DNA from: Albugo candida
Taxonomy: Eukaryota
Assembly: GCA_040437565.1 (NCBI GenBank)
Contig: JBDOQK010000030.1
Span: 1 to 64,000, forward strand
DNA: 64,000 bases
Direction: 5' to 3'
Shown here: piece after piece, positions 20,601-48,500 of the stretch
Position numbering within the stretch: the stretch's first letter is position 1
Layout: each line of letters opens with the position of its first letter
The notes under the pieces: generated by a model
What the model was told of the DNA's origin: nothing
Database searches by the model: none
Seen by the model: the letters and a program-made list of their open reading frames with translations, nothing else
Made by a program: the position numbers and the translations under genes

Positions 20601-22214
20601 TCCAAAAAGTTCGCCAAAGCTGGCTCGATATTTGACGTTCTTTTCGCAATTTACATTCAAGCTGCATCACGTTCAAGGTCATTTGAATGTGGTAGCCGAT
20701 GCTTTATCACGTCAAGGTTCCGAATTGTCAACGGCACGGGATGCTATCAGCGACTTTGATGTTGGTGATTTAACGCTTACTAATGGCGATATAAATGGAA
20801 AGTCCAGTACGTTGCGTTCTATAAGCGCTACCGAGCCTTCTTCTGGAACTGTTGATGTGACACAAGAATCTCACAATTGGAGCTCGCTTGGTTCGTCAAA
20901 TTCGGTTTGTAAGAATTTGCGAGTGGATATCGTACTTGTCCAGATTATGCCGAACACTTCAAACGTCCAGACTCAATATATGTAAAACACGAAGGTTTGC
21001 TTTACTTCAAGTCACAAATGATGAATGCGTGTGTGTGTACCAAGCACACAAGATAATTATCGTCGAACTTCTATCAGCTCATGCTTTCATGACTCCAAAA
21101 TTGCCGCACATCCTGGTGCTCAACGAACATTTTTACGCATCGGTCAATGGTATCATTGGACTACATTGAATCAAGAAGTTCGAGATTACGAACAGAGTTG
21201 TGAAACATGCACTCACTGGAAACACAGAAACGCTCGCAAGAATGGAAAATGATTCCAATCCCGACTCCGGAAGAATGTTGGTCAGTTATCTCTATGGATT
21301 TCATTACGGGATTACCGAAATCGAACGGATTTGATGCTATCATGGCAGTTGTCGACAAATTGTCCAAACGGTCAAAATATCGGGCGTGCAATCGCAATGA
21401 TGATGCCCATAAGACAGCGTGTCATTTCTTTGATTGTGTCGTTCGTCATCATGTTCTACCATCGATTATTATCATCGATCGAGATTCCGAGTTTGTTTCG
21501 AAGTTTTGGTCCTCTCTTGCTAAGTTGATGGGAATTCGTCTGCATATGGCAACTTCATATCGGGCACAAGCCGACGGACAAACGGAGCGTCAAAATCTGA
21601 TTTTGGAAGACGCTCTACGCTGTATGATTTCGTATCATGGACGTGGTTGGTCCGATTATTTAGGGACAATTGAATATGCTCATTCCCTTCTCGTCAGTGT
21701 ATCAACTGGTATGTCACCTTTCGAAATTAATACTGGTGGCAAGGAACGCAATCCGTTGAATCCGCTAAGTACTCCTAGCAGCACAACTCAAATGCAACAT
21801 GGAATCGCTAAGTATGCAAAACATTTTCAAAACCGTTGTCAAGAAATCATTGATCTAGCTACGAAACATTTTCTTCAAGCTCAGGATCGTCAAAAGAAGT
21901 ACTACGACAAAAAACGCACTGAGATTACTTTTAAAATTGGAGATTTGGTCATGTTGGATACTCGTCGCATTCCTGCGAAACATGTGACACAAGACATTGA
22001 TGGAAATCGCGCCAAATTAGCTGCTCGCAAAGTTGGACCATTTCCAATTATTAAAATGGTCAAGTCGAATGTTGCGCAATCGAAGCTTCCGCGGAGTATG
22101 AGTCGATTCAATATCGACTTGTTAAGTCACTATGTGAGAAATCTATCGCGATTTTAGACTCGTCCAATTCCGAAATCATCCAGACTTATTTTTGACGAGG
22201 ACAGTGGCGACACA

Positions 22215-27595: not shown

Positions 27596-30289
27596 CTAGA
27601 AAATGATCATCGACTCCATTCGAGTCAATTGCTCGTTCGTTCCTATTGGAAGCCGATATTTGATCATTCCAGCAAATGCAACCACAAGCTCCATTTTTTC
27701 TCGCAGAATACCGACACCGACGCGAGCAATGTCTTCTGAGCTGTGTGCTTTGAGACGTTCAGACTCGCGAACGAGACATTCTGCATACCGCAACAGAATG
27801 ATATCAAAATGTTGACGAACAGAGTCTTCAAATGCCATAAAACGATCCACGCACAGTGTGATCGTATTGATACTATTCCCATTCTCATTTGGCGATGGGA
27901 ATATATCCAATCCTTCCACAAAACGGATTGCATCGGTACACTTTTCGTCTTGAAAAAGATTGAGGAAAATACAGAAATTGAGCAAAGTTTGGAATGAAAT
28001 TGTGGTCGAACGCGCGTATCCGCTGGCAATGTTCTGTACCCACGGATGCTGTAGCCATTGATCTGCGAATTCTTTACCAATGCGAAAGACCTGTTCACGC
28101 TCGACTCGAGTTGCCGACAAAGACGCTGAAAGCTGTTTGTTCAGAAGCGAAATCACTGCAACGATATCGCCGGCGGTTTGATACAACTGTAAAGCATCAG
28201 AGGAAGCACCTTGCTGTTCTGCTTTTCGTGCGGCTGAAATGAGAATTTCTTGGACTTTGGCGTCATCTCTAAGAAGACGATCGTATAAGCCATGTGAACG
28301 ACATCCATCAGCATTATTCATACGCCCAACAAGTGTCTCAAACTTTCTGGATTCCAGCAGTAATTCAATCAAAAGCTCGTGTCGTGTGATTTCATCGGTA
28401 ATGCAGCAGTAGTACTCAGTGGCTTCACAAGGATGATTTCGTTGGAACTGATGGACAAATTGACGTAACAAGCGAGTGAGATCCAAATTCGACTCATCTT
28501 CTTCTTCTCCAGCTGATACCATTGCACAATGAAGCAAGCCATAATAATTCAACGTGATAGCGAAATGGACAGCTTCCAATATATGTCCTTTGGACGCCAG
28601 ATATTTGATCGCAGCTTCAAAATCCTGTGTGATTAAAAGAATTTCAAAGAACAGCAGCGGAGCTAAAGCGGGATTTTCGATATTAGATGCTTCGAAATGT
28701 GAAGGACCAAATTTTTGAATACTCTGAGCCAATTTATTGACGCTGTAGCGTTGCGATGTGTCGGATGCGGTCGTATTGCCATTGATGAAACACAAACGTT
28801 GCCACAGGTAATCCTCAATAGTGACAAGCACACGCGACTCACGCAAATTCGGGTTCACAAAGCAGAGAATATTGAGCACACATACTTCGTAGGGATCAAT
28901 TGTGTGAGTATCGTCCATTGAACTGCTCGTGAGTTGTCGGTATTTCTCTAACAAATGCTTGTACTCCACAGGATATCTGATTTCAACCGATGGAATGCCC
29001 AAAGCTTCCGACTGAGTATGAGTTTTTTTCAATGCGACACGATATTCCAATAGTTTCAATACAGCTTTATCAACGACACTTTGGTTCGATCGGATGATAT
29101 TTGCAACATATTCAACGATTTCTTCTTCTGCTCCACAACGTAAGCCGTAATAGATCACAGCCCAAAGCTGTGATTGAGACTCACTTGCCCTCTGTGATAA
29201 AAATGGATCATAGGAAGACTTTAACACATGATGGACAAATGCACGCAAATTTGGTAAAAGGCCCGACACTCCGCCTGTTGCTAATTGATATTTTGTGACC
29301 GTTTGCTGCACACAAACGCGAAATTGATTTTCTAAAAACAAAAGTGCACCAAATGCCAACTGACGTCGAAGCGATGAGAATTGCGATTCGTTTGCAAGTG
29401 CATTGCTGAATGCATTCTCGCCAGGGATTTTTTTGTATTCAACATACTTTGTCATTTGGCTGGTACTATTGCTATCAATTTGACCAGTAAGCATTGTGCC
29501 AAGCAGCTGCCAGCATTTCCAAATGAATTCCCATTTTGTACCGGGACCTTCCTGTTGTAATTGTTCCAAACACGCTCTCTCAAACGCATGCACCAAATCG
29601 AATTGACAGCGTGTTTCAGGCTGACGATGTATCATGAGCTCCTTAATGACTTTATGATAAACTTTCATTTCTTGACTCATTGACATCTCACTTTGCAAAT
29701 GTGATATTCGAAGTGGCGTATCGAGTCCATTTAACCTCATACGTTCAGTCTCCAATTTCTGTACGATTTGATTCCTTGTGTGACCATCAGAGCAAGTGAC
29801 GATCTGTCTCGATCTGCTGCTACTTTTGAGGCTTTCTTTGGTGCAATTGTGAAGGATCTCCTGTTTCATCGTCTCATAATCGTCAATAATCGCCTGATTC
29901 ATCGCGTCGTGCGTAAACTCGACCGTTCTTCGATTCGTTTGATCGATGGATGCAAACAGAATTCGTTCGTGATGACGCGCCAAATGGCTTTTTAGATTCA
30001 AATTTGCCCCAATAAATTTGCTTTTTGGCTCAATGAGAGAATTCTGTAAACTCTCCAAATCGTTAAATATTTTGTGTGTGTCCAATCCTTTGGACGCCAG
30101 TAAGAAGCTCGCTTTGTCATTGCGTCTGCTCCCTTCGTGTTGATCGCCACATTGCCGAATGTGGCGCTTAAATGCGTTTTTATGGACCTTTTCGAGCTGA
30201 TCGAGTCCTTTCACAAGTGGAGGGATTTCTGTCTCGTTGATTGGAGTCGTCAGCTTCAAGGAATTCTCATACAAAGTCTTGAAATCCAT
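27596..30289 (-). CDS. NUP93: Nuclear pore complex protein Nup93/Nic96
   Basis: ~897-aa single-exon ORF, first ATG at MDFKTLYENS. Nic96-type motifs: KASFLLASKGLD, WAVIYYGLRCG, DPYE, TIEDYLWQRL, EAVHFAITLNYYGLL, FAGMIKYRLP. Confidence 0.93.
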   Translation of the reverse strand: MDFKTLYENSLKLTTPINETEIPPLVKGLDQLEKVHKNAFKRHIRQCGDQHEGSRRNDKASFLLASKGLDTHKIFNDLESLQNSLIEPKSKFIGANLNLKSHLARHHERILFASIDQTNRRTVEFTHDAMNQAIIDDYETMKQEILHNCTKESLKSSSRSRQIVTCSDGHTRNQIVQKLETERMRLNGLDTPLRISHLQSEMSMSQEMKVYHKVIKELMIHRQPETRCQFDLVHAFERACLEQLQQEGPGTKWEFIWKCWQLLGTMLTGQIDSNSTSQMTKYVEYKKIPGENAFSNALANESQFSSLRRQLAFGALLFLENQFRVCVQQTVTKYQLATGGVSGLLPNLRAFVHHVLKSSYDPFLSQRASESQSQLWAVIYYGLRCGAEEEIVEYVANIIRSNQSVVDKAVLKLLEYRVALKKTHTQSEALGIPSVEIRYPVEYKHLLEKYRQLTSSSMDDTHTIDPYEVCVLNILCFVNPNLRESRVLVTIEDYLWQRLCFINGNTTASDTSQRYSVNKLAQSIQKFGPSHFEASNIENPALAPLLFFEILLITQDFEAAIKYLASKGHILEAVHFAITLNYYGLLHCAMVSAGEEEDESNLDLTRLLRQFVHQFQRNHPCEATEYYCCITDEITRHELLIELLLESRKFETLVGRMNNADGCRSHGLYDRLLRDDAKVQEILISAARKAEQQGASSDALQLYQTAGDIVAVISLLNKQLSASLSATRVEREQVFRIGKEFADQWLQHPWVQNIASGYARSTTISFQTLLNFCIFLNLFQDEKCTDAIRFVEGLDIFPSPNENGNSINTITLCVDRFMAFEDSVRQHFDIILLRYAECLVRESERLKAHSSEDIARVGVGILREKMELVVAFAGMIKYRLPIGTNEQLTRMESMIIF

Positions 30290-30717: not shown

Positions 30718-33700
30718 ATGGCATGGGATTGTCCAATGTGCAATTTCTCTCGAAATGAAGATGATCAGTCACGTTGCGTGGCGTGTGGCGCAGGCGAGAA
30801 ACCTCAAGTGGATACCTCAAAACCATACACAATCAGTATTGAGTTACCTGCAAAGGAGAAACTTGGTGTGAAGCTAATGCCACCCAAAAATGGGGTCATT
30901 CATCACGGGTTAAGTATCGATAACATCGATAATCCATTGTTAGAAAATAAGGTCCAAGCAGGTGATTTGATCGTTGCAATTGGTGGAAAAGCTGTCCATG
31001 GATTAGGATTCTCAGATGCAATCGATCTGATTCGAAAATTACCACGTCCATTAGCTATTTCATTCGAAATCGATGAAAAAAGGAGAGAAAAAGCACAACG
31101 CGACAAATCCGATTTCGTCATTCAAAATGATTTGGACACACAATTAACGACATACGCTGTCGTATTCGAAGAAGGACCGATGGGATTGAATTTGGAAGAA
31201 GCGGTACGATACGGAATTGATGGAGCTGTTGTGAAGGCTTTGAAAGGACAGGCGAAAACGAGCGGAATGATCTCAGTCGGTGATATTGTGTACAAAGTGA
31301 ATGAGACCGATGTGCTTTGTATGCCATACACTGAAGTAATGAATGTGATCCGAAACACACCAACGCCGAGGACTTTGCAATTCGTGCCGAAAGATAAATT
31401 AGCAGACGTACAACGAGTGAATTCACGGCATTCAGAATCGTTCCGAATGAGAGACTCCAATATTGTTAAAGATAAACTGATGAAAAGTCCACGGATTGTC
31501 AAAGATGAAGGAAGTGAAGATGCTGATGATCATAAATCCATTGCACGGTTGATTTTGGATAATCAAGCAGCTACCATAAAGAAAGGACGAATGTACAAAC
31601 AGGGACGTGTGATGCGAACGTGGAAAAGTCGATATTTTATATTGAGTGTGTCGAAATTGGAATACTTTAAAAATCCAAGTGCCACCAATGCACGTGGAGA
31701 GATGAGTTTTTTGAGTCATCGATGTACTGTGCGCTCCCTACCTCCAACGCAAGATGTGGTGTGTAAGTCTCCGGCAGTGACCGCCAAATACTTGTTGGAA
31801 TTGAGAGTGGATGACAGGCGATTAGTGATGGCGTGTACTTCGGATTCCGATAAGAAAGGATGGATGGACGCTCTCAAGTTGGCTATTGATGCATCCAAAA
31901 CAGTTGGACGCACGCAACCCGACGGATCTCCTGAAGCAGACAGTCGAGCGCTTTTACTGCAACATACCGCTAGTATCCGCGCAGACGCCACATTTCTCGA
32001 TAAAAACACCAGTGGAAGACTGTCTCAATTCAGCTATGACGCATTTGCTACACCGGTTGTCCATATCACTGTGGTATCAGCGACGAACCTCACAAAGGCG
32101 GGAAGCACAGTCAATGCTGTGTGTGAAATCACTCTTGGCGATGAGACATTCCGAACGTCCACAGTGAAGAGCCAACGATCGCCTGTTTGGCAACAAGACA
32201 ATTCAGCGTCTTTCGAAGTACCGAATCAGGAAATGGTGATAGAAGTTCGAGTTTTTGATGAGCACGTATTTCGATCCACAGAGCTGATGGCGACACTTAC
32301 AATTCCATTGAGATCTCTACCGAATATGGAAAAAACCAATAGAAAGTATCCTCTTGCAGTCGGAAATCGATCGTCCGGTGCATTTTTATCGTTATCGCTC
32401 GAGTATATCAATAAAGCACGAGCATTCCAACAGGATCAAGAGCGTCAGAGGATGGCGGATGATTTAGGACGCTTATCGATGCTGAGATCAGGCGATGAAA
32501 TGACCAAATTACAAAACGAAGCACAAATGGCTGCAGATGAAGCGACTGATATTGCTGCACGCGCTGAAGCCGAAGCATTAACCCTTCTTGAACAAGCTCG
32601 TCAGAAAGCAGAAGCAGCTGTTGCAGCAGCTCGTGCAGAACAAGAGCAAGGTAAAGCGGCTGTTGAGGCTGCGATGGCGGAAGCGGCGTCCGCCAAGGAA
32701 GAAGCAGAAAGACAAGCAGAGGAAGCACGAAGGGCACAAGAAGAAGCTCGCAAGTTGATTGAAGCAAATCGAAGAATCCAAGAGCATTCTTCCCAAGCTC
32801 AACAATTGCAAGGCAATTCTGTCTTTGCCAATTATCGCAAAATGATTATGGATGGCCAATCTTCCGAAAGTGTTATCGAGACGATGCGTAATGACGGAAT
32901 CGATGAGATCAATATCACAGCTTTTTTCGACGGAATCAACTCATACGATGAGAAAATACGAGCACTGCAAGCTGAAGTCGAAAAATTGAAGCGGAATCGA
33001 AGCACTCGCCAGCGTGAAGAGACCAAAACGGAAGACATGTTTGCGCATATGGACATTTCAAAAGACCAAGTCAAACTTCTCCGACGTTTACTGAAATTGG
33101 AGAAACAACTACAACAAGCCGGAATTGCTGTTGCTGCTGATATTCCGTACGAGGAAGCAAAAGCGAAAATTGAAGAGATATCTCGTCGAATGTACGAAAT
33201 CGGGTCTTCGGATGTCACTCATCCCGATCCGCTGATTCAGAAACAACTTCGTGAAGAATATTATAAATTGGAACAAGATATGGAGAAATACAACACCGCT
33301 CTCATGCTTACGGATGAATTTGCAGCAGAAGAAGCTCGTAAAGACAGAGAATGGGAAGAAGAAAATGAAGAGGCAAACGCTCGGGCTTTGATAGCAATTC
33401 GTCGTATGATGCCTGTTGACGTGAAGCAGAGATCAGAGGCAGATTTACAAAGTATGGAGACTCCACGCGGTGGAAAGATCCCGCGAGAAGTTGCACGAAA
33501 ATACAAACGAACGAATGTGTTACAATTACTTCGAATGGATCCCGCGGAGATTGCAAAGAATCATCCGTCGCTGTTGGATAATTTTCGTGTGACGGGTCTG
33601 ACGGTCACAGAACGTCGGGCTTTGCATCATCATTTACGTGGCATTGCTGATGTGTGGAAGACTCAGCAATCCGATGAAATGACAAAGAAAAAGTATGATT

Positions 33701-34911
33701 GGTTCAAAAGTCTCAAAGAGACCTCCAAAACAGTTTTGAATGCGTACAACACACATGTGAAGCAATACGGCCCACCAAGCAATCATCCATACGCGACTCG
33801 CGATGATCCCGACATTGGATGCCCGTTGATTGGAAAGCAGTGCCCGATCAAAGCCGATATGGCCCCACCGTATGACTTGGATTTGGGCTTCCCGGAAGGA
33901 GATGTGTACTTGGAAACAACGATTCAAAAAGGAAGTCCAGACGACTCGGGAGCACGGGCATTACGTGAAGCGCAAGAATTAGCTCGTGCTAAAGTATCGA
34001 ATTCTCGGACAGATACTTTGAAAAAGCACTACAAGAATGTTCGACTCGTAGCGGAAGCCAAAGGTGCATGCGAACATCTCGATACAATGCTGGACACTAT
34101 AGAATTACGACAATTACAATTGTTCCAAGCTCGTCTCAAGCATCGACTTGTGCAGTCTGAGACAGCTGCTACAATCAAATTGGAATTGGCTGAATTTGGA
34201 GATTTAGTGAATGAAATACGTCTTGCAAGCTTCAAATTCGCAGAGCGATCAGGAATGAGTATGAAAGGCAAACGAACGGCAACATCGGATGGATCCGACA
34301 CTCGGTCGTCGATAGAGTGTCATTTGTGTATTTTGTACTGTGATGCCGCATTGGATTGTTTCGCAGGGATTCTTGAGCGCATGGATGAAGTGAAAGCTTC
34401 CGATAAACGACTTGGTTCAGCAATTCCTTCACTCGAAGAACTGCTCCGAGAAGTACAAGAACGAAGTAGAAAAATGCTGTCTTCTTTATCGGACAAAGGA
34501 CCTCCAATGAATCGTCGATTGAAGACTCGGGTTGAGATTATGAAAGAAGCCAAAGAGAAGAATGCCGCAGAAAATGGAACTACAGCAACGTCTAGTGAGT
34601 CGAGTACTCCAGCTGGAGGTGAGCGTCCTCCAAATCCAATGCTTGCAGCACGAGGACGTGGTCGTGGAGGTCGAGGAAGAGGAGACTTATTATCAGCATT
34701 GAAAGGCCGTGGAGGAAACACCGATGAGAATGGAGATGGTATGAAAGGAGGACCACCAGGTGCAGGAGGTTTGTTTGCTGCAATCAAAAGTCGTGGTGCT
34801 CGTGGTGAAAATGACACTCGAGGTGGTCTGCTTGCTGGTATTCAGGCGCGTGGTCGTGGAGGTCGTGGGAATGATCTTATGGCAGCAATAGCAGCGCGAA
34901 GGAAAGAATGA
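30718..34911 (+). CDS. 1397-aa multidomain protein: RanBP2-type zinc finger, 2x PDZ, PH, C2, coiled coil, CCDC53-like motif, unknown helical domain, RGG-rich tail with WH2-like repeats
   Basis: WDCPMCNFSRN...RCVACG (ZnF_RBZ); KLGVKL..VQAGDLIVAIGG and GPMGLNL..ISVGDIVYKVNE (PDZ); KKGRMYKQGRVMRTWKSRYFIL..KGWMDALK (PH); VHITVVSATNL..PVW..EVRVFDE (C2); E/A/Q/R-rich coil; tail RGDLLSALK/GGLFAAIK/GGLLAGIQ/NDLMAAIA. Confidence 0.9.
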   Translation: MAWDCPMCNFSRNEDDQSRCVACGAGEKPQVDTSKPYTISIELPAKEKLGVKLMPPKNGVIHHGLSIDNIDNPLLENKVQAGDLIVAIGGKAVHGLGFSDAIDLIRKLPRPLAISFEIDEKRREKAQRDKSDFVIQNDLDTQLTTYAVVFEEGPMGLNLEEAVRYGIDGAVVKALKGQAKTSGMISVGDIVYKVNETDVLCMPYTEVMNVIRNTPTPRTLQFVPKDKLADVQRVNSRHSESFRMRDSNIVKDKLMKSPRIVKDEGSEDADDHKSIARLILDNQAATIKKGRMYKQGRVMRTWKSRYFILSVSKLEYFKNPSATNARGEMSFLSHRCTVRSLPPTQDVVCKSPAVTAKYLLELRVDDRRLVMACTSDSDKKGWMDALKLAIDASKTVGRTQPDGSPEADSRALLLQHTASIRADATFLDKNTSGRLSQFSYDAFATPVVHITVVSATNLTKAGSTVNAVCEITLGDETFRTSTVKSQRSPVWQQDNSASFEVPNQEMVIEVRVFDEHVFRSTELMATLTIPLRSLPNMEKTNRKYPLAVGNRSSGAFLSLSLEYINKARAFQQDQERQRMADDLGRLSMLRSGDEMTKLQNEAQMAADEATDIAARAEAEALTLLEQARQKAEAAVAAARAEQEQGKAAVEAAMAEAASAKEEAERQAEEARRAQEEARKLIEANRRIQEHSSQAQQLQGNSVFANYRKMIMDGQSSESVIETMRNDGIDEINITAFFDGINSYDEKIRALQAEVEKLKRNRSTRQREETKTEDMFAHMDISKDQVKLLRRLLKLEKQLQQAGIAVAADIPYEEAKAKIEEISRRMYEIGSSDVTHPDPLIQKQLREEYYKLEQDMEKYNTALMLTDEFAAEEARKDREWEEENEEANARALIAIRRMMPVDVKQRSEADLQSMETPRGGKIPREVARKYKRTNVLQLLRMDPAEIAKNHPSLLDNFRVTGLTVTERRALHHHLRGIADVWKTQQSDEMTKKKYDWFKSLKETSKTVLNAYNTHVKQYGPPSNHPYATRDDPDIGCPLIGKQCPIKADMAPPYDLDLGFPEGDVYLETTIQKGSPDDSGARALREAQELARAKVSNSRTDTLKKHYKNVRLVAEAKGACEHLDTMLDTIELRQLQLFQARLKHRLVQSETAATIKLELAEFGDLVNEIRLASFKFAERSGMSMKGKRTATSDGSDTRSSIECHLCILYCDAALDCFAGILERMDEVKASDKRLGSAIPSLEELLREVQERSRKMLSSLSDKGPPMNRRLKTRVEIMKEAKEKNAAENGTTATSSESSTPAGGERPPNPMLAARGRGRGGRGRGDLLSALKGRGGNTDENGDGMKGGPPGAGGLFAAIKSRGARGENDTRGGLLAGIQARGRGGRGNDLMAAIAARRKE

Positions 34912-45598: not shown

Positions 45599-48500
45599 TC
45601 AACTGTGGCTTCGATTTTCCGATGAGAAAATATAGTTGAATGAAAATTGACTGAATCTCCGGCTGTTGATATTTTTCTGGTTCACGCTTGGATCATATAA
45701 AGCTGAAGGTGGCCCGTCATCTGTGAATTCGGGATCCACATAGCGTGTATCGGTATCACCCGACAATTTGGGTCGCCAAAAAGCTTTAATTTCGCGTCGT
45801 GCGAGACTTTCCCAATTGATGGACGCAAAAAATGGATTCGATTTGATTTTGTCCACGCCGTGTGTTTCGGAGCATCCGAGTCGCTCGGTAGGATCCTTAC
45901 ACAGAAGCCCACGAGCGAGCTCTAATGCATCTTTTGGGAAATCAGCAGGAAACACGACTTGTTCATTTGCAATGCGCTGCAACATTGTGTGCTCGTTTTC
46001 GTGATAGAAAGGAGACTCGCCAACTAACATCTCATACTGCCAATATGAACATTCAATGAGACAGAAAAAGTGGAGCAAGTGTACTGTCTTACCAGAACAA
46101 CGCCGAGACTCCACCAGTCGTATGCTTTACCGTACTCACGTGTTCCATCGATAGCTTGAGCCAATGCTTCCGGCGCAACATACTCGGCTGTACCTGATAG
46201 AGTTCGCACACCAGAGCTGCTTCCATGAATGTGCTGCTTTGAAAGCCCAAAGTCGACAACAGCAATATGACCTTCATCATCAATCATGATATTAGATGGC
46301 TTCAAGTCTCTATACAGAATGTTCAATTCGTGCAAGTATGATATCGCTAGCACCAATTCAGCAGCGTATAAGCGCGCATCGCGGACACTCAAGTTGCCTC
46401 GTAGATTCAGATGATAAAATAAATCTCCAGCTGCGTAATATTTCATCCCAAGATAGAGTCGCTCATTGGTTTGGAAGGCAAATAAGAGTCCACAAATGTA
46501 CGGATGGTGAATACGTTGCAGAATTTGGCGTTCTTCCATGGCGTTGACCTTGTCAGCTGAATCCATGTTCGTTTTTTTTAATATTTTGATAGCAAATATG
46601 CGACCATCTTTTTTGAAACGAACAAGAATTACTGCTGCAAAACTTCCTTTGCCCAAAACACTAAGCATTTCGAAATCTTGAATCGATAAAGCCTCAACTT
46701 CGCTCTGTTGCTCGGACGAGTCCGCATCGAAGCGGACTTCACTGGATCTAGAACTGCTCAAAGGTTCACGGTTGGTGTTCATTGCCGTAAGATTACTGGC
46801 GTCAGCATCGAGTGAGACTTTCATCTCAAGTTCCTTTGTCTCTTCGTGCACAATAAGTGGCACATCCGAGTGAATCGATTGCTTCTCTCGCGACGTTTCT
46901 GTGGTCTGATAGGTTTCCAACTTGAGACTATCGGCTGACATTGACGCTGAGAATGTCTCAGAAATTGAAGGAATGGGTATAAGTAATTCGTTGTGTGGGC
47001 GACCAATGTGATTTTCGTGATGTATTTGTGCTGCAATTGCTTCTGCCTTGGCCTTTGCCTGAGTAGCTGCTACTGCACCGGCTTTGGCAAAATCCGTATC
47101 ACGTTCAGGTGGCGAGAGAGAAGCAATTAATTGCTCGCTTAACTGACTCCCACCAACGTTTTCATCGTTTCGTTCGACATCGCTTGGCTGTGTCATAAAG
47201 TAATGTTCCAACGCTACTTGAACATTTCCTCCAGCACCATCTAGATATACGCTGAGCACATCTCGAGACACGTCAGGACCGGTGATGCTTGTCATTTGAT
47301 CGATTTTTGCATCTATTTCTGATATCATTTCGCTGGTACAGGAATTACGGAGAGCCTACAAAAGGTGTTATTCATTAGAAGATTCCAAATAGGCAAATGC
47401 ACAGCAAACTCTTACTCTGCTGAGAGATGATCTCGATCGTTTGGGCGAACCGGTCAGGATGACTAACTTTGACGGATCCATCGGATCCCCATCGATTGCG
47501 ATACTCTCCGATGCATTGTCTGTTAGCTTCACGTACATATACAATCTCTGTGATGGCCTAAGCGGTGATAGAAGAAAGAAATCCTAAGTGCTCTGCGCTA
47601 ACAATAATCATGAAGCTAAAATTTCACGCACGTTTTGATGCGTTCCATACTCAAAAAGTAGCGATTATGATTGAAAGTTCCAGCGCCACCTGGTCGTTCC
47701 GCTCGAAGAACTAGCTCTTTATCCTTCCACTTGTAACTAGTCAGAAAGAAATACTCGCCAGGCCGCAAGTATCGTCCCAGAGGAAGTCCTCGAATGACGA
47801 ATTTGGATCGATCATCATCGGACGGTTGTTTCCATTGTAACATTCTCCGATTTGAATATAGCTGGCCAATTGGCCGTAGCCATAAACCATCACATTCCAA
47901 CGTGACAACATCGCCGTTCATAAGATACGGAAAGTGAAAATCTGTAGTTGCAGTGTTTTCCACGTAAGGAGAATTTGGTGCTGCGCGCTTCATGCCACCC
48001 ATTTTCTTCCATAATCTCTTCCGTAATATAATCGACGAGTTCTTATCATTATTAGGCGTCAAGACTTCGTATACTCCCGACCCAGCAGTGAGATGTGCGT
48101 TACATCCTTCTACTTTACTAATCGTTCCGGGAAGATAACGTGCATGCAGATTGACACGTAAGCCCGAGTGTATGAATGTGGAGTAAGATTTCTTCGAGTC
48201 GTTGGGATGTCTCGATATGGCTGCAACATTTGCCACATTTTCGCTGACTTGTTGCATCGGTGCAACTTCCATAAAGTAGTAATTGATAGCGTCGCTAACA
48301 TCAAAAGCACACGTGTGGAGACATGTGAGTATGACACTTTTCGGGACATGTTCTCCAAGAATAGTACGCATCAAGTCAACGTCATTATCAGCTTCGGATA
48401 TACTTTCATCCACAGATGCAGCTTGGGATTGTGTCTCCTGCATTGGGTGAGTAGAGGTGTCGTGCTCACTCGAAAGCACGACAGAGTGAGACTGGACGAT

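Follow-up and report, generated by a model that had tools for sequence, protein, structure and literature searches.

A candidate membrane-to-actin scaffold of Albugo candida with a C-terminal module shared by oomycetes and diatoms

Analysis of a 64,000-nucleotide stretch of DNA from Albugo candida (the window; contig JBDOQK010000030.1, positions 1 to 64,000 of the forward strand) reveals a reading frame whose large, uncharacterised product may be a new kind of link between membranes and actin; as a candidate it is good, though unproven. The reading that we tentatively favour is that of a membrane-recruited, Arp2/3-independent actin-binding scaffold; an earlier note on this DNA suggested that it might act as a nucleator or recruiter, possibly in tip growth or haustoria. 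Oomycetes include major crop pathogens, and they rely on actin to grow at hyphal tips and to form plaques and infection structures; to our knowledge, few oomycete actin regulators have been recognised. Diatoms build elaborate actin arrays. Because the protein family is conserved in both lineages, stands repeatedly behind phosphoinositide-binding heads and ends in tandem motifs resembling the helix of WH2, it could be a lineage-specific link from membrane to actin and is a candidate that lends itself to testing.

Domain composition of the reading frame

The reading frame starts with ATG, consists of a single exon and runs without an internal stop through all of its codons to a stop codon. Its coordinates, length and uninterrupted frame are exactly those claimed in the earlier note, and the order of domains proposed there is also correct (Table 1). 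At NCBI the protein is listed as 'unnamed protein product [Albugo candida]', which is identical to the translation at all but three residues.

Table 1. Features of the reading frame and their positions in the window
Feature	Residues	Positions	Strand	Basis or remark
Whole reading frame		30718..34911	+	1397 aa; 3/1397 residues differ from the NCBI Albugo candida protein
RanBP2-type zinc finger	3-25	30724..30792	+	Pfam, below cut-off; PDB phmmer matches to RanBP2/Nup153
PDZ domain 1	about 37-118	30826..31071	+	first of two Pfam PDZ stretches; PDZ_6
PDZ domain 2	about 146-228	31153..31401	+	Pfam, best stretch 152-216
PH domain	about 282-392	31561..31893	+	Pfam
C2 domain	about 445-547	32050..32358	+	Pfam
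Ala/Glu/Gln/Arg-rich helical spacer	566-700	32413..32817	+	composition
Single degenerate CCDC53 C-terminal-like motif	706-739	32833..32934	+	Pfam, below cut-off; BLAST to diatom copies
Subdomain A of the family-defining module	793-1073	33094..33936	+	conservation, AF2 model
Subdomain B, helical bundle	1074-1290	33937..34587	+	
Gly/Arg-rich tail with five short hydrophobic motifs		34588..34908	+	motif starts at nt 34639, 34687, 34771, 34828, 34876

The N-terminal finger scores 17.9 bits in the whole protein; searched as a 45-aa piece it reaches 24.4 bits (E 1.7e-5), just short of the Pfam cut-off of 27 bits. Its assignment to the RanBP2 type is nevertheless borne out by phmmer matches to RanBP2 (E 2.5e-7) and Nup153 (E 4.2e-7) among PDB sequences and by the spacing W-x-C-x2-C ... 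N ... C-x2-C, in which the four cysteines, the tryptophan and the asparagine are all present, with one extra residue. A CxxC...CxxC arrangement occurs within the first 40 residues in 31 of 46 oomycete-type matches.

The two PDZ domains, the PH domain and the C2 domain that had been proposed to follow the finger all score above the Pfam gathering values. Pfam PDZ is found in two stretches, the better of which reaches 35.4 bits against a cut-off of 23.2; the PDZ_6 profile gives 25.7 bits (cut-off 27) at residues 79-106, and the PDB matches at residues 61-115 are PDZ domains of MAST kinases. The PH domain (residues 287-390; 48.9 bits, cut-off 25.1) has its nearest PDB relatives in the C-terminal PH domain of centaurin-alpha-1 (E 1.2e-7), TAPP1, DAPP1 and Akt2, and has kept the basic beta1-beta2 residues seen in the closest of these structures. 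The C2 domain (residues 448-546; 55.7 bits, cut-off 22) is nearest to those of extended synaptotagmin-2 (E 7.9e-6) and MCTP2. In the alignment with E-Syt2 the acidic loop is partly replaced, which suggests that some of this loop has been lost.

The spacer after the C2 domain is composed of 25% A, 15% E, 12% Q and 10% R. A coiled coil, which had been placed in this region, was considered for residues 566-700 and set aside as the heptad check was weak.

Similarity to CCDC53 (PF10152) is not significant in the A. candida protein taken alone. The match in the whole protein (residues 626-730, profile positions 62-143 of 147) has 20.1 bits and an E of 9e-4 against a cut-off of 24.6 bits, residues 557-792 searched by themselves give E 0.5, and residues 695-745 give no CCDC53 match in Pfam. 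In diatom relatives the same similarity is clear, with three to four copies of the motif above the Pfam cut-off at up to 144 bits, and only on account of these copies is the earlier label 'CCDC53-like' justified. The A. candida motif is 36-41% identical to repeat copies in the diatom relative P0067 (BLAST, E 0.029 and 0.22). In the database search P0067 itself was 45% identical to the query across 35% of its length, yet pairwise BLAST gave short matches only.

A helical module shared with diatoms

The best-conserved part of the A. candida protein is a core module of about 500 aa (about residues 793-1290), which AF2 models confidently as an all-helical, two-part structure. The 'unknown domain' of the earlier note is real, and it is this region that defines the family. 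In subdomain A the pLDDT is mostly above 90, the median identity to 29 non-oomycete relatives is 53% and four columns (H949, H1013, C1035 and C1042) hardly vary. Searches of Pfam and of PDB sequences gave no match for the core module, and fold comparison gave no clear one; the best Pfam match of subdomain A reaches only E 0.063, and residues 780-1290 gave no usable match in the ESM Atlas. Subdomain A is an unannotated domain. A weak match of the diatom protein P0072 to ferritin among PDB sequences (E 0.007, 17 bits) lies on subdomain B and is read as a four-helix-bundle likeness only. The unusual conservation of subdomain A is what would be expected if its partner itself hardly changes, and conservation to this degree calls for an explanation whether or not actin is bound by the tail.

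The family comprises 291 clusters at 50% identity and is conserved between oomycetes and diatoms; all non-oomycete relatives that bear an organism name are diatoms. Together, the CCDC53-like motif, the helical core and the tail repeats make up a single module, which diatoms carry behind other N-termini. A second class of named oomycete paralogs has the same module behind a FYVE domain, which is also present in 8 of 45 further family representatives. Only in oomycetes was the ZnF-PDZ-PDZ-PH-C2 cassette encountered in fusion with this C-terminal half. The assembly by oomycete domain shuffling suggested earlier needs correcting in that the C-terminal half is no oomycete invention; since it is present in diatoms too, only the N-terminal cassette is oomycete-specific.

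No characterised protein with the same architecture turned up, in line with the earlier note, which did not recognise the combination from any characterised protein. Relatives are named in their sources as 'hypothetical', 'unnamed' or 'uncharacterized', or after a domain only (PDZ-, PH-, C2- or FYVE-type), apart from a few evident mislabels. Our search of titles, abstract openings and passages found no paper describing the family and none joining WH2, oomycetes and actin. Seven locus tags, PITG_00263 among them, likewise gave no mention in the literature, though supplementary files could hold some.

Recurrence of lipid-binding heads (PH/C2, FYVE) on the same module would favour, judged from the sequences, a membrane-recruited actin-binding scaffold. 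PH/C2 and FYVE heads are also typical of trafficking proteins, and they would suit a somewhat unlikely alternative in which the protein is a membrane-trafficking or tethering scaffold and its tail motifs are short linear motifs for a non-actin target.

The C-terminal repeats and their possible partners

The five motifs in the tail of the A. candida protein start at residues 1308, 1324, 1352, 1371 and 1387, the last of them lying 4 residues before the C-terminus, and have the form R-G-x-L-[LMF]-x-A-I-x-[GA]-R-G. Across the family there are 2-10 copies per protein. At least two are present in 107 of the 170 proteins with the core motif, and in 95 of these 107 multi-copy proteins the last copy is at most 20 aa from the C-terminus. 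The tail is flexible and has a pLDDT below 55 in the AF2 model, where two motifs appear as short helices of low confidence. No tandem repeats are present at the DNA level in the A. candida tail, so that the repeats must be old at the protein level. The motifs were also considered as IQ/calmodulin motifs; this reading was rejected, as no more than 15% of units have Gln at the relevant position and the motifs are not spaced as it would require.

In the passages of Kollmar et al. 2012 (PMC3298513) used here, the WH2 pattern consists of a helix half followed 4-10 residues later by LKKT/V. The helix pattern published there was counted in the last 150 aa and in the rest of 164 family proteins. The tails contain 156 matches (0.63 per 100 aa) spread over 81 of the 164 proteins and the other 177,006 aa contain 30 (0.017 per 100 aa), an enrichment of about 37-fold; shuffled tails gave 0.9 +/- 0.9 matches. 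Among the A. candida copies, one of five (residue 1324) matches the helix pattern strictly and four of five meet a loosened five-residue core.

The second half of WH2 is a different matter. The full published pattern has no match in the 164 family proteins, and L-[KR]-[KRST]-[VTIAL] follows within 10 aa in none of 482 tail units. In the last 97 aa of the A. candida protein the Pfam WH2 profile (PF02205; cut-off 23.1 bits) scores 9.6 bits with E 1, and of its 28 positions only 5-14 are matched. Four of 38 members reach E <= 0.01, always over profile positions 1-14 or 1-16; P0032 passes the cut-off of 23.1 with 24.6 bits, a score summed over copies that all fall on profile positions 1-14. Of the WH2-like repeats claimed earlier, the helix half stands and the LKKT/V half does not. 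The label 'WH2-like' is fair and 'WH2' is not.

The missing LKKT/V, the Pfam E of 1 and the single strict copy in A. candida would argue against binding of actin by this tail, and other partners could be served by a hydrophobic core of five residues set among Gly and Arg. The apparent partial loss of the acidic C2 loop and the lack of a recognisable fold or family for the core module also count against the favoured scaffold. The absence of LKKT/V, together with the Arg or Lys flanks on the hydrophobic core of every motif, suits the trafficking or tethering scaffold introduced above. Its tail could hold basic-hydrophobic anchors on acidic lipids, contact another cytoskeletal or trafficking partner or serve as an autoinhibitory latch on the conserved module. 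However, the motif fits the WH2 helix by residue class, including an Arg three residues upstream in 64% of units and Ala at the small fourth position in 79%. The protein already has dedicated lipid-binding domains, and AF2 did not dock the low-confidence tail onto the module. Searched alone against PDB sequences, the tail gave chance-level matches only (E 0.68 and 0.97).

The composition of the A. candida tail (25% G, 14% R) raises the thought of an RGG-type RNA-binding or arginine-methylated region, which with the RanBP2-type finger would make the protein a membrane-associated RNA/RNP scaffold. RGG boxes and RanBP2-type fingers co-occur in RNA-binding proteins of the FET family. Yet in tails of the FYVE class the Gly/Arg linkers are missing and the hydrophobic core followed by Arg/Lys is retained, which identifies the core, and not RGG, as the conserved element. 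Saprolegnian paralogs have acidic and proline-rich spacers in place of the linkers and no finger, and the Pfam scan of the protein gave no RNA-binding domain. We regard an RNA scaffold as highly unlikely.

The least probable of the readings weighed is that of an oomycete Arp2/3 nucleation-promoting factor or WASH-complex component. It draws on the CCDC53-like similarity, the WH2-helix-like motifs and the WASH protein of Phytophthora mentioned in the passages of PMC3298513 used here. Against it, a connector and acidic-Trp end was found in none of the 107 members with at least two tail motifs, only five of which have a Trp anywhere in the motif region. The family also thrives in diatoms, which the same passages of PMC3298513 describe as being without the Arp2/3 complex and WASP-family proteins. 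The missing acidic-Trp end and the presence in diatoms would favour an Arp2/3-independent protein, as nothing appears to point to Arp2/3 activation.

For the membrane-recruited actin-binding scaffold, the following mechanism may be proposed. Lipid binding by PH and C2, or by FYVE in the sister class, would seat the protein on a phosphoinositide-bearing membrane, while the PDZ domains and the zinc finger would supply a protein cue, possibly ubiquitin or Ran. Each tail helix would dock weakly to actin, entering the barbed-end cleft of a monomer or of a filament end, with the Arg/Lys after the helix substituting for the missing LKKT/V. Since several copies would be held on the membrane, they could gather actin monomers and pass them on, or tether filaments. 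Either oligomerisation of the protein or contact with an equally conserved partner would fall to the conserved module.

A bolder proposal, which we consider unlikely, is that the A. candida protein is the founding member, on the oomycete side, of a so far undescribed family of stramenopile factors that assemble actin independently of Arp2/3. The new helical domain of about 280 aa and the 2-10 helix-only WH2-type motifs would then nucleate or elongate filaments on membranes, and in diatoms the expanded family would be a main route of actin assembly beside formins.

Comparison with known actin regulators

The tail units resemble WH2 (PF02205; pattern as in the passages of PMC3298513 used here) in having a pair of large hydrophobic residues, then two that are small or acidic, and finally Ile/Leu with a basic or polar residue after it, and differ from it in that the LKKT/V anchor is missing from every family unit examined. 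With CCDC53/WASHC3, a subunit of the WASH complex, the A. candida protein shares one degenerate copy at the same place as the repeats of its relatives; however, the N-terminal part of the profile is unmatched, the score stays below the cut-off, and the motif sits in another protein, in organisms that the same passages of PMC3298513 report to be without WASH partners. Unlike WASP-family proteins with their VCA region, the 107 members with at least two tail motifs have no connector followed by an acidic stretch that bears a conserved Trp.

Spire nucleates actin through tandem WH2 motifs, has a modified FYVE domain that binds membranes and works independently of Arp2/3. The A. candida protein is similar in that a single chain joins membrane- or lipid-binding domains to several WH2-type motifs at close spacing, a logic that is repeated by its FYVE-class paralogs. 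In contrast to Spire, the motifs of the family are without LKKT/V and lie at the extreme C-terminus, and Spire has no counterpart of the family's large helical module. KIND/Spir-box, FH2 and EVH1/EVH2 are absent among the 11 Pfam families found up to E 1, a range in which HMMER filters drop most matches above about 0.1.

The formin FMNL3 reportedly has a WH2-like C-terminal sequence that binds monomers and barbed ends. FMNL3 and Ena/VASP resemble the family in that, at or near the C-terminus, a WH2-like motif consisting of the helix alone precedes basic residues. The difference lies in number, as one or two copies are present there, compared with five to ten copies here.

The gene and its conserved helical core

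Of the 1397 residues encoded by the studied ORF, all but 3 are identical in an Albugo candida entry named 'unnamed protein product', so the window derives from that oomycete or from a near-identical strain. The N-terminus has the initial pattern M-x-W-x-C common to all oomycete orthologues; the start codon is therefore correct and the gene requires no exon further upstream. Its 5' neighbour, in head-to-head arrangement, is a Nup93/Nic96 nucleoporin gene, the two being transcribed divergently with about 430 bp between them, and this neighbour is uninformative on the function of the studied gene. Only 7 ORFs of at least 200 aa are present in the whole 64 kb. The 316-aa ORF with an integrase core has the appearance of a retrotransposon remnant.

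Features of the window referred to in the text
Feature	Position	Strand	Remarks
Studied gene	30718..34911	+	Single uninterrupted ORF, ATG start, 1397 codons
Nup93/Nic96 nucleoporin, 897-aa ORF	27596..30289	-	Full-length domain, Pfam E 5.2e-96
316-aa ORF, integrase core and Tf2-1-type SH3 domain	21207..22157	+	
ORF with UBA-like and protein kinase domains	46024..47328	-	
ORF with RAD5A-type UBA domain	47616..48443	-	Adjoins the UBA-like/kinase ORF

A search of 5.8 billion proteins reveals orthologues of the same architecture, 53-73% identical, in Peronosporales, Pythiales and Saprolegniales, together with many further proteins that match the last third of the query only. The Phytophthora orthologue is PITG_00263. 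P0096, from Nitzschia, covers residues 793-1359 in an alignment of 598 columns with 42% identical positions (E 2e-128). Using residues 780-1290 as query, a filter-free HMMER search recovered 291 clusters (at 50% identity) at E <= 1e-3, 215 at E <= 1e-10 and 161 at E <= 1e-30. All non-oomycete members with an organism name are diatoms (Nitzschia, Cylindrotheca, Pseudo-nitzschia, Mayamaea, Seminavis, Fragilaria and Bacillariaceae MAGs). Most matches are nameless metagenome or transcriptome proteins and it is possible, given this, that the taxonomic range extends beyond oomycetes and diatoms.

The AlphaFold2 model, built on a 38-row alignment, is all-helical over residues 782-1290, where most pLDDT values exceed 90. 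Median identity to A. candida is 53% for subdomain A (residues 793-1073; 29 non-oomycete rows) and 35% for subdomain B (residues 1074-1290; 27 rows). Some diatom members stop soon after subdomain A, where a tail motif follows directly, and since they lack what lies between, subdomain A plus a tail motif is the minimal unit. Residues H949, H1013, C1035 and C1042 (window positions 33559..33846) are kept in at least 90% of family rows, and the two cysteines sit in a C-x6-C loop which is non-helical in the model. It is possible that these four residues form a structural metal site.

For the module, no clear match was obtained in Pfam (best E 0.063), the family profile gave none among PDB sequences (best E 0.2) and Foldseek of the module gave none in the PDB (best E 0.3). 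The ESM Atlas search returned no usable match for the module, subdomain A being barely probed in that search. By these comparisons, in which no annotated family was matched, the core domain appears to be new.

Lipid-binding heads and family history

In the N-terminal cassette, C2 (residues 448-546, 55.7 bits), PH (287-390, 48.9 bits) and PDZ (two stretches, the best at 152-216 with 35.4 bits) score above Pfam's curated cut-offs, and the first PDZ is additionally detected as PDZ_6 (79-106). The RanBP2-type finger (residues 3-25) stays below its cut-off (24.4 bits on a 45-aa piece, against 27). Alignments to RanBP2 (E 2.5e-7) and Nup153 (E 4.2e-7) fingers show the four Cys, the Trp and the Asn all present and one additional residue. 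The cysteine pattern of the finger is retained in 31 of 46 oomycete-type matches; among the other 15 are the five paralogs from Saprolegniales and models whose N-terminus is different or shortened. The C2 domain has its closest relatives in extended synaptotagmin-2 and MCTP2, although its acidic loop appears to be partly lost. The closest solved relatives of the PH domain are the C-terminal PH of centaurin-alpha-1, TAPP1, DAPP1 and Akt2, which bind 3-phosphoinositides. Because of this kinship, 3-phosphoinositide binding is a reasonable inference for the PH domain of the studied protein, in which the basic residues on strands 1-2 are preserved.

A quick maximum-likelihood tree of subdomain A (76 rows, 281 columns, SH-aLRT support only, midpoint root) places every oomycete sequence on a side of 22 rows (support 95) and every named diatom sequence on the other side of 54 rows. 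The 22-row side contains the PDZ-PH-C2 class (support 96), a FYVE class (support 99) and one Thraustotheca protein. If the root falls between the two sides, the module predates the oomycete-diatom split and both lipid-binding heads were gained within the oomycete line. The FYVE-headed class (P0098/P0268, P0284-P0286 and P0149-P0188, from oomycetes and unnamed sources) has only two tail motifs. One of its members is labelled 'fab1' (PI3P 5-kinase) at source, and with no kinase domain detected in it by Pfam this is an apparent misannotation.

In five further oomycete proteins (P0036, P0038, P0039, P0045 and P0047), Pfam finds the PDZ-PDZ-PH-C2 cassette joined to a protein kinase domain in place of the helical module, and in Phytophthora kernoviae such a cassette-kinase protein is encoded by a separate gene. 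On domain content, oomycetes use the cassette as a reusable unit. The domain shuffling proposed in the earlier note thus holds for the N-terminal half of the protein but not for the C-terminal half, where the module is shared with diatoms. In Saprolegniales, a paralog without the finger (P0040-P0044) adjoins the relatives P0023, P0024 and P0030. Their locus tags are adjacent on shared contigs (SDRG_02288/02289, ACHHYP_12825/12826 and DYB31_000795/000796), which points to a tandem duplicate, the tail linkers of which are acidic and proline-rich as opposed to Gly/Arg-rich.

Tail repeats and the CCDC53-like region

Gly makes up 25% and Arg 14% of the final 107 residues, which contain five motif copies starting at residues 1308, 1324, 1352, 1371 and 1387, with no DNA-level repeat. 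The family logo, G-R-G-[DG]-L-[LM]-[ASD]-A-I-x-[GA]-R-G-[RG]-G-G, was derived from 322 complete units among 403 found in 127 proteins. Family proteins carry 2-10 copies, with starts mostly spaced by 15-26 residues. When the set is enlarged to 170 proteins, 107 show at least two copies, the final one lying within 20 residues of the C-terminus in 95 of the 107. The FYVE-class tails retain the hydrophobic core followed by Arg/Lys in the absence of Gly/Arg linkers, so the hydrophobic core is the selected feature. An RGG-type RNA role, suggested by the composition, fits the data poorly and is very unlikely.

WH2 was defined from 1080 examples by Kollmar et al. 2012 (PMC3298513), who found conservation to be strongest at the LKKV motif and at the three hydrophobic residues of the helix. 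The helix half, as given there, finds 156 matches in the last 150 residues of 164 family proteins (in 81 of the 164), against 30 in their remaining 177,006 residues and 0.9 +/- 0.9 in shuffled tails. The complete pattern has no match across the 164 proteins, and an LKKV-like motif follows none of 482 tail units. Similarly, the Pfam WH2 model matches over profile positions 1-14 or 1-16 only; 4 of 38 members reach E <= 0.01, and for the A. candida tail the value is E 1. Of the WH2-like repeats proposed earlier, the helix half is therefore borne out by its enrichment in the tails, but the LKKV half is absent. In the main rival reading the protein is a trafficking scaffold whose motifs bind the membrane or a partner other than actin; this seems to us unlikely, though it deserves consideration.

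The CCDC53 signal in the A. candida protein lies below the Pfam cut-off (20.1 bits against 24.6); it falls to E 0.5 when residues 557-792 are scanned alone, and residues 695-745 alone give no Pfam CCDC53 match. In diatom members, CCDC53 profile positions ~85-147 recur as three or four tandem copies (40 to 144 bits), and residues 706-749 of the A. candida protein align to two copies in the relative P0067 (36% and 41% identity, E 0.029 and 0.22). From these alignments, the region is homologous to a repeated motif also carried by the WASH-complex subunit CCDC53. As no match extends over the N-terminal part of the profile, the earlier CCDC53-like label describes this motif and not membership of the CCDC53 family. 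Of 45 further representatives scanned with Pfam, 8 have FYVE, 4 have the CCDC53 motif (one of them together with TPR repeats) and 33 have no match. An unnamed relative of 1231 aa (P0182) combines CCDC53-motif repeats and subdomain A with a C-terminal TPR block in place of the usual tail. Despite the shared motif, a role as Arp2/3 activator or in WASH is a poor fit and highly improbable; an acidic-Trp end is found in none of the 107 members with at least two tail copies.

Possible mechanism and known systems

We tentatively propose the protein as a candidate membrane-recruited, Arp2/3-independent actin-binding scaffold. Recruitment to a phosphoinositide membrane would depend on PH and C2, or on FYVE in the sister class, a protein cue would come from the finger together with the PDZ domains, and the tail helices, in several copies, might bind actin monomers or filament ends weakly. 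Such action would be independent of Arp2/3, which fits the absence of a CA region and the presence of the family in diatoms, reported in PMC3298513 to be without Arp2/3 and WASP-family proteins. That surface-clustered WH2 motifs accelerate filament elongation is an established idea (PMC5753033).

No characterised homologue of the protein was found, nor any paper on the family in a literature search covering texts outside supplementary files, and the protein falls outside Spire, the WASP-family proteins, the formins, CCDC53 and WH2 proper. The closest working analogy is Spire, in which tandem WH2 motifs are combined with a FYVE-type membrane anchor. We rate the protein as a variation on a known sort of system, a membrane-anchored tandem actin-motif protein with putative actin binding, built on an apparently new core domain.
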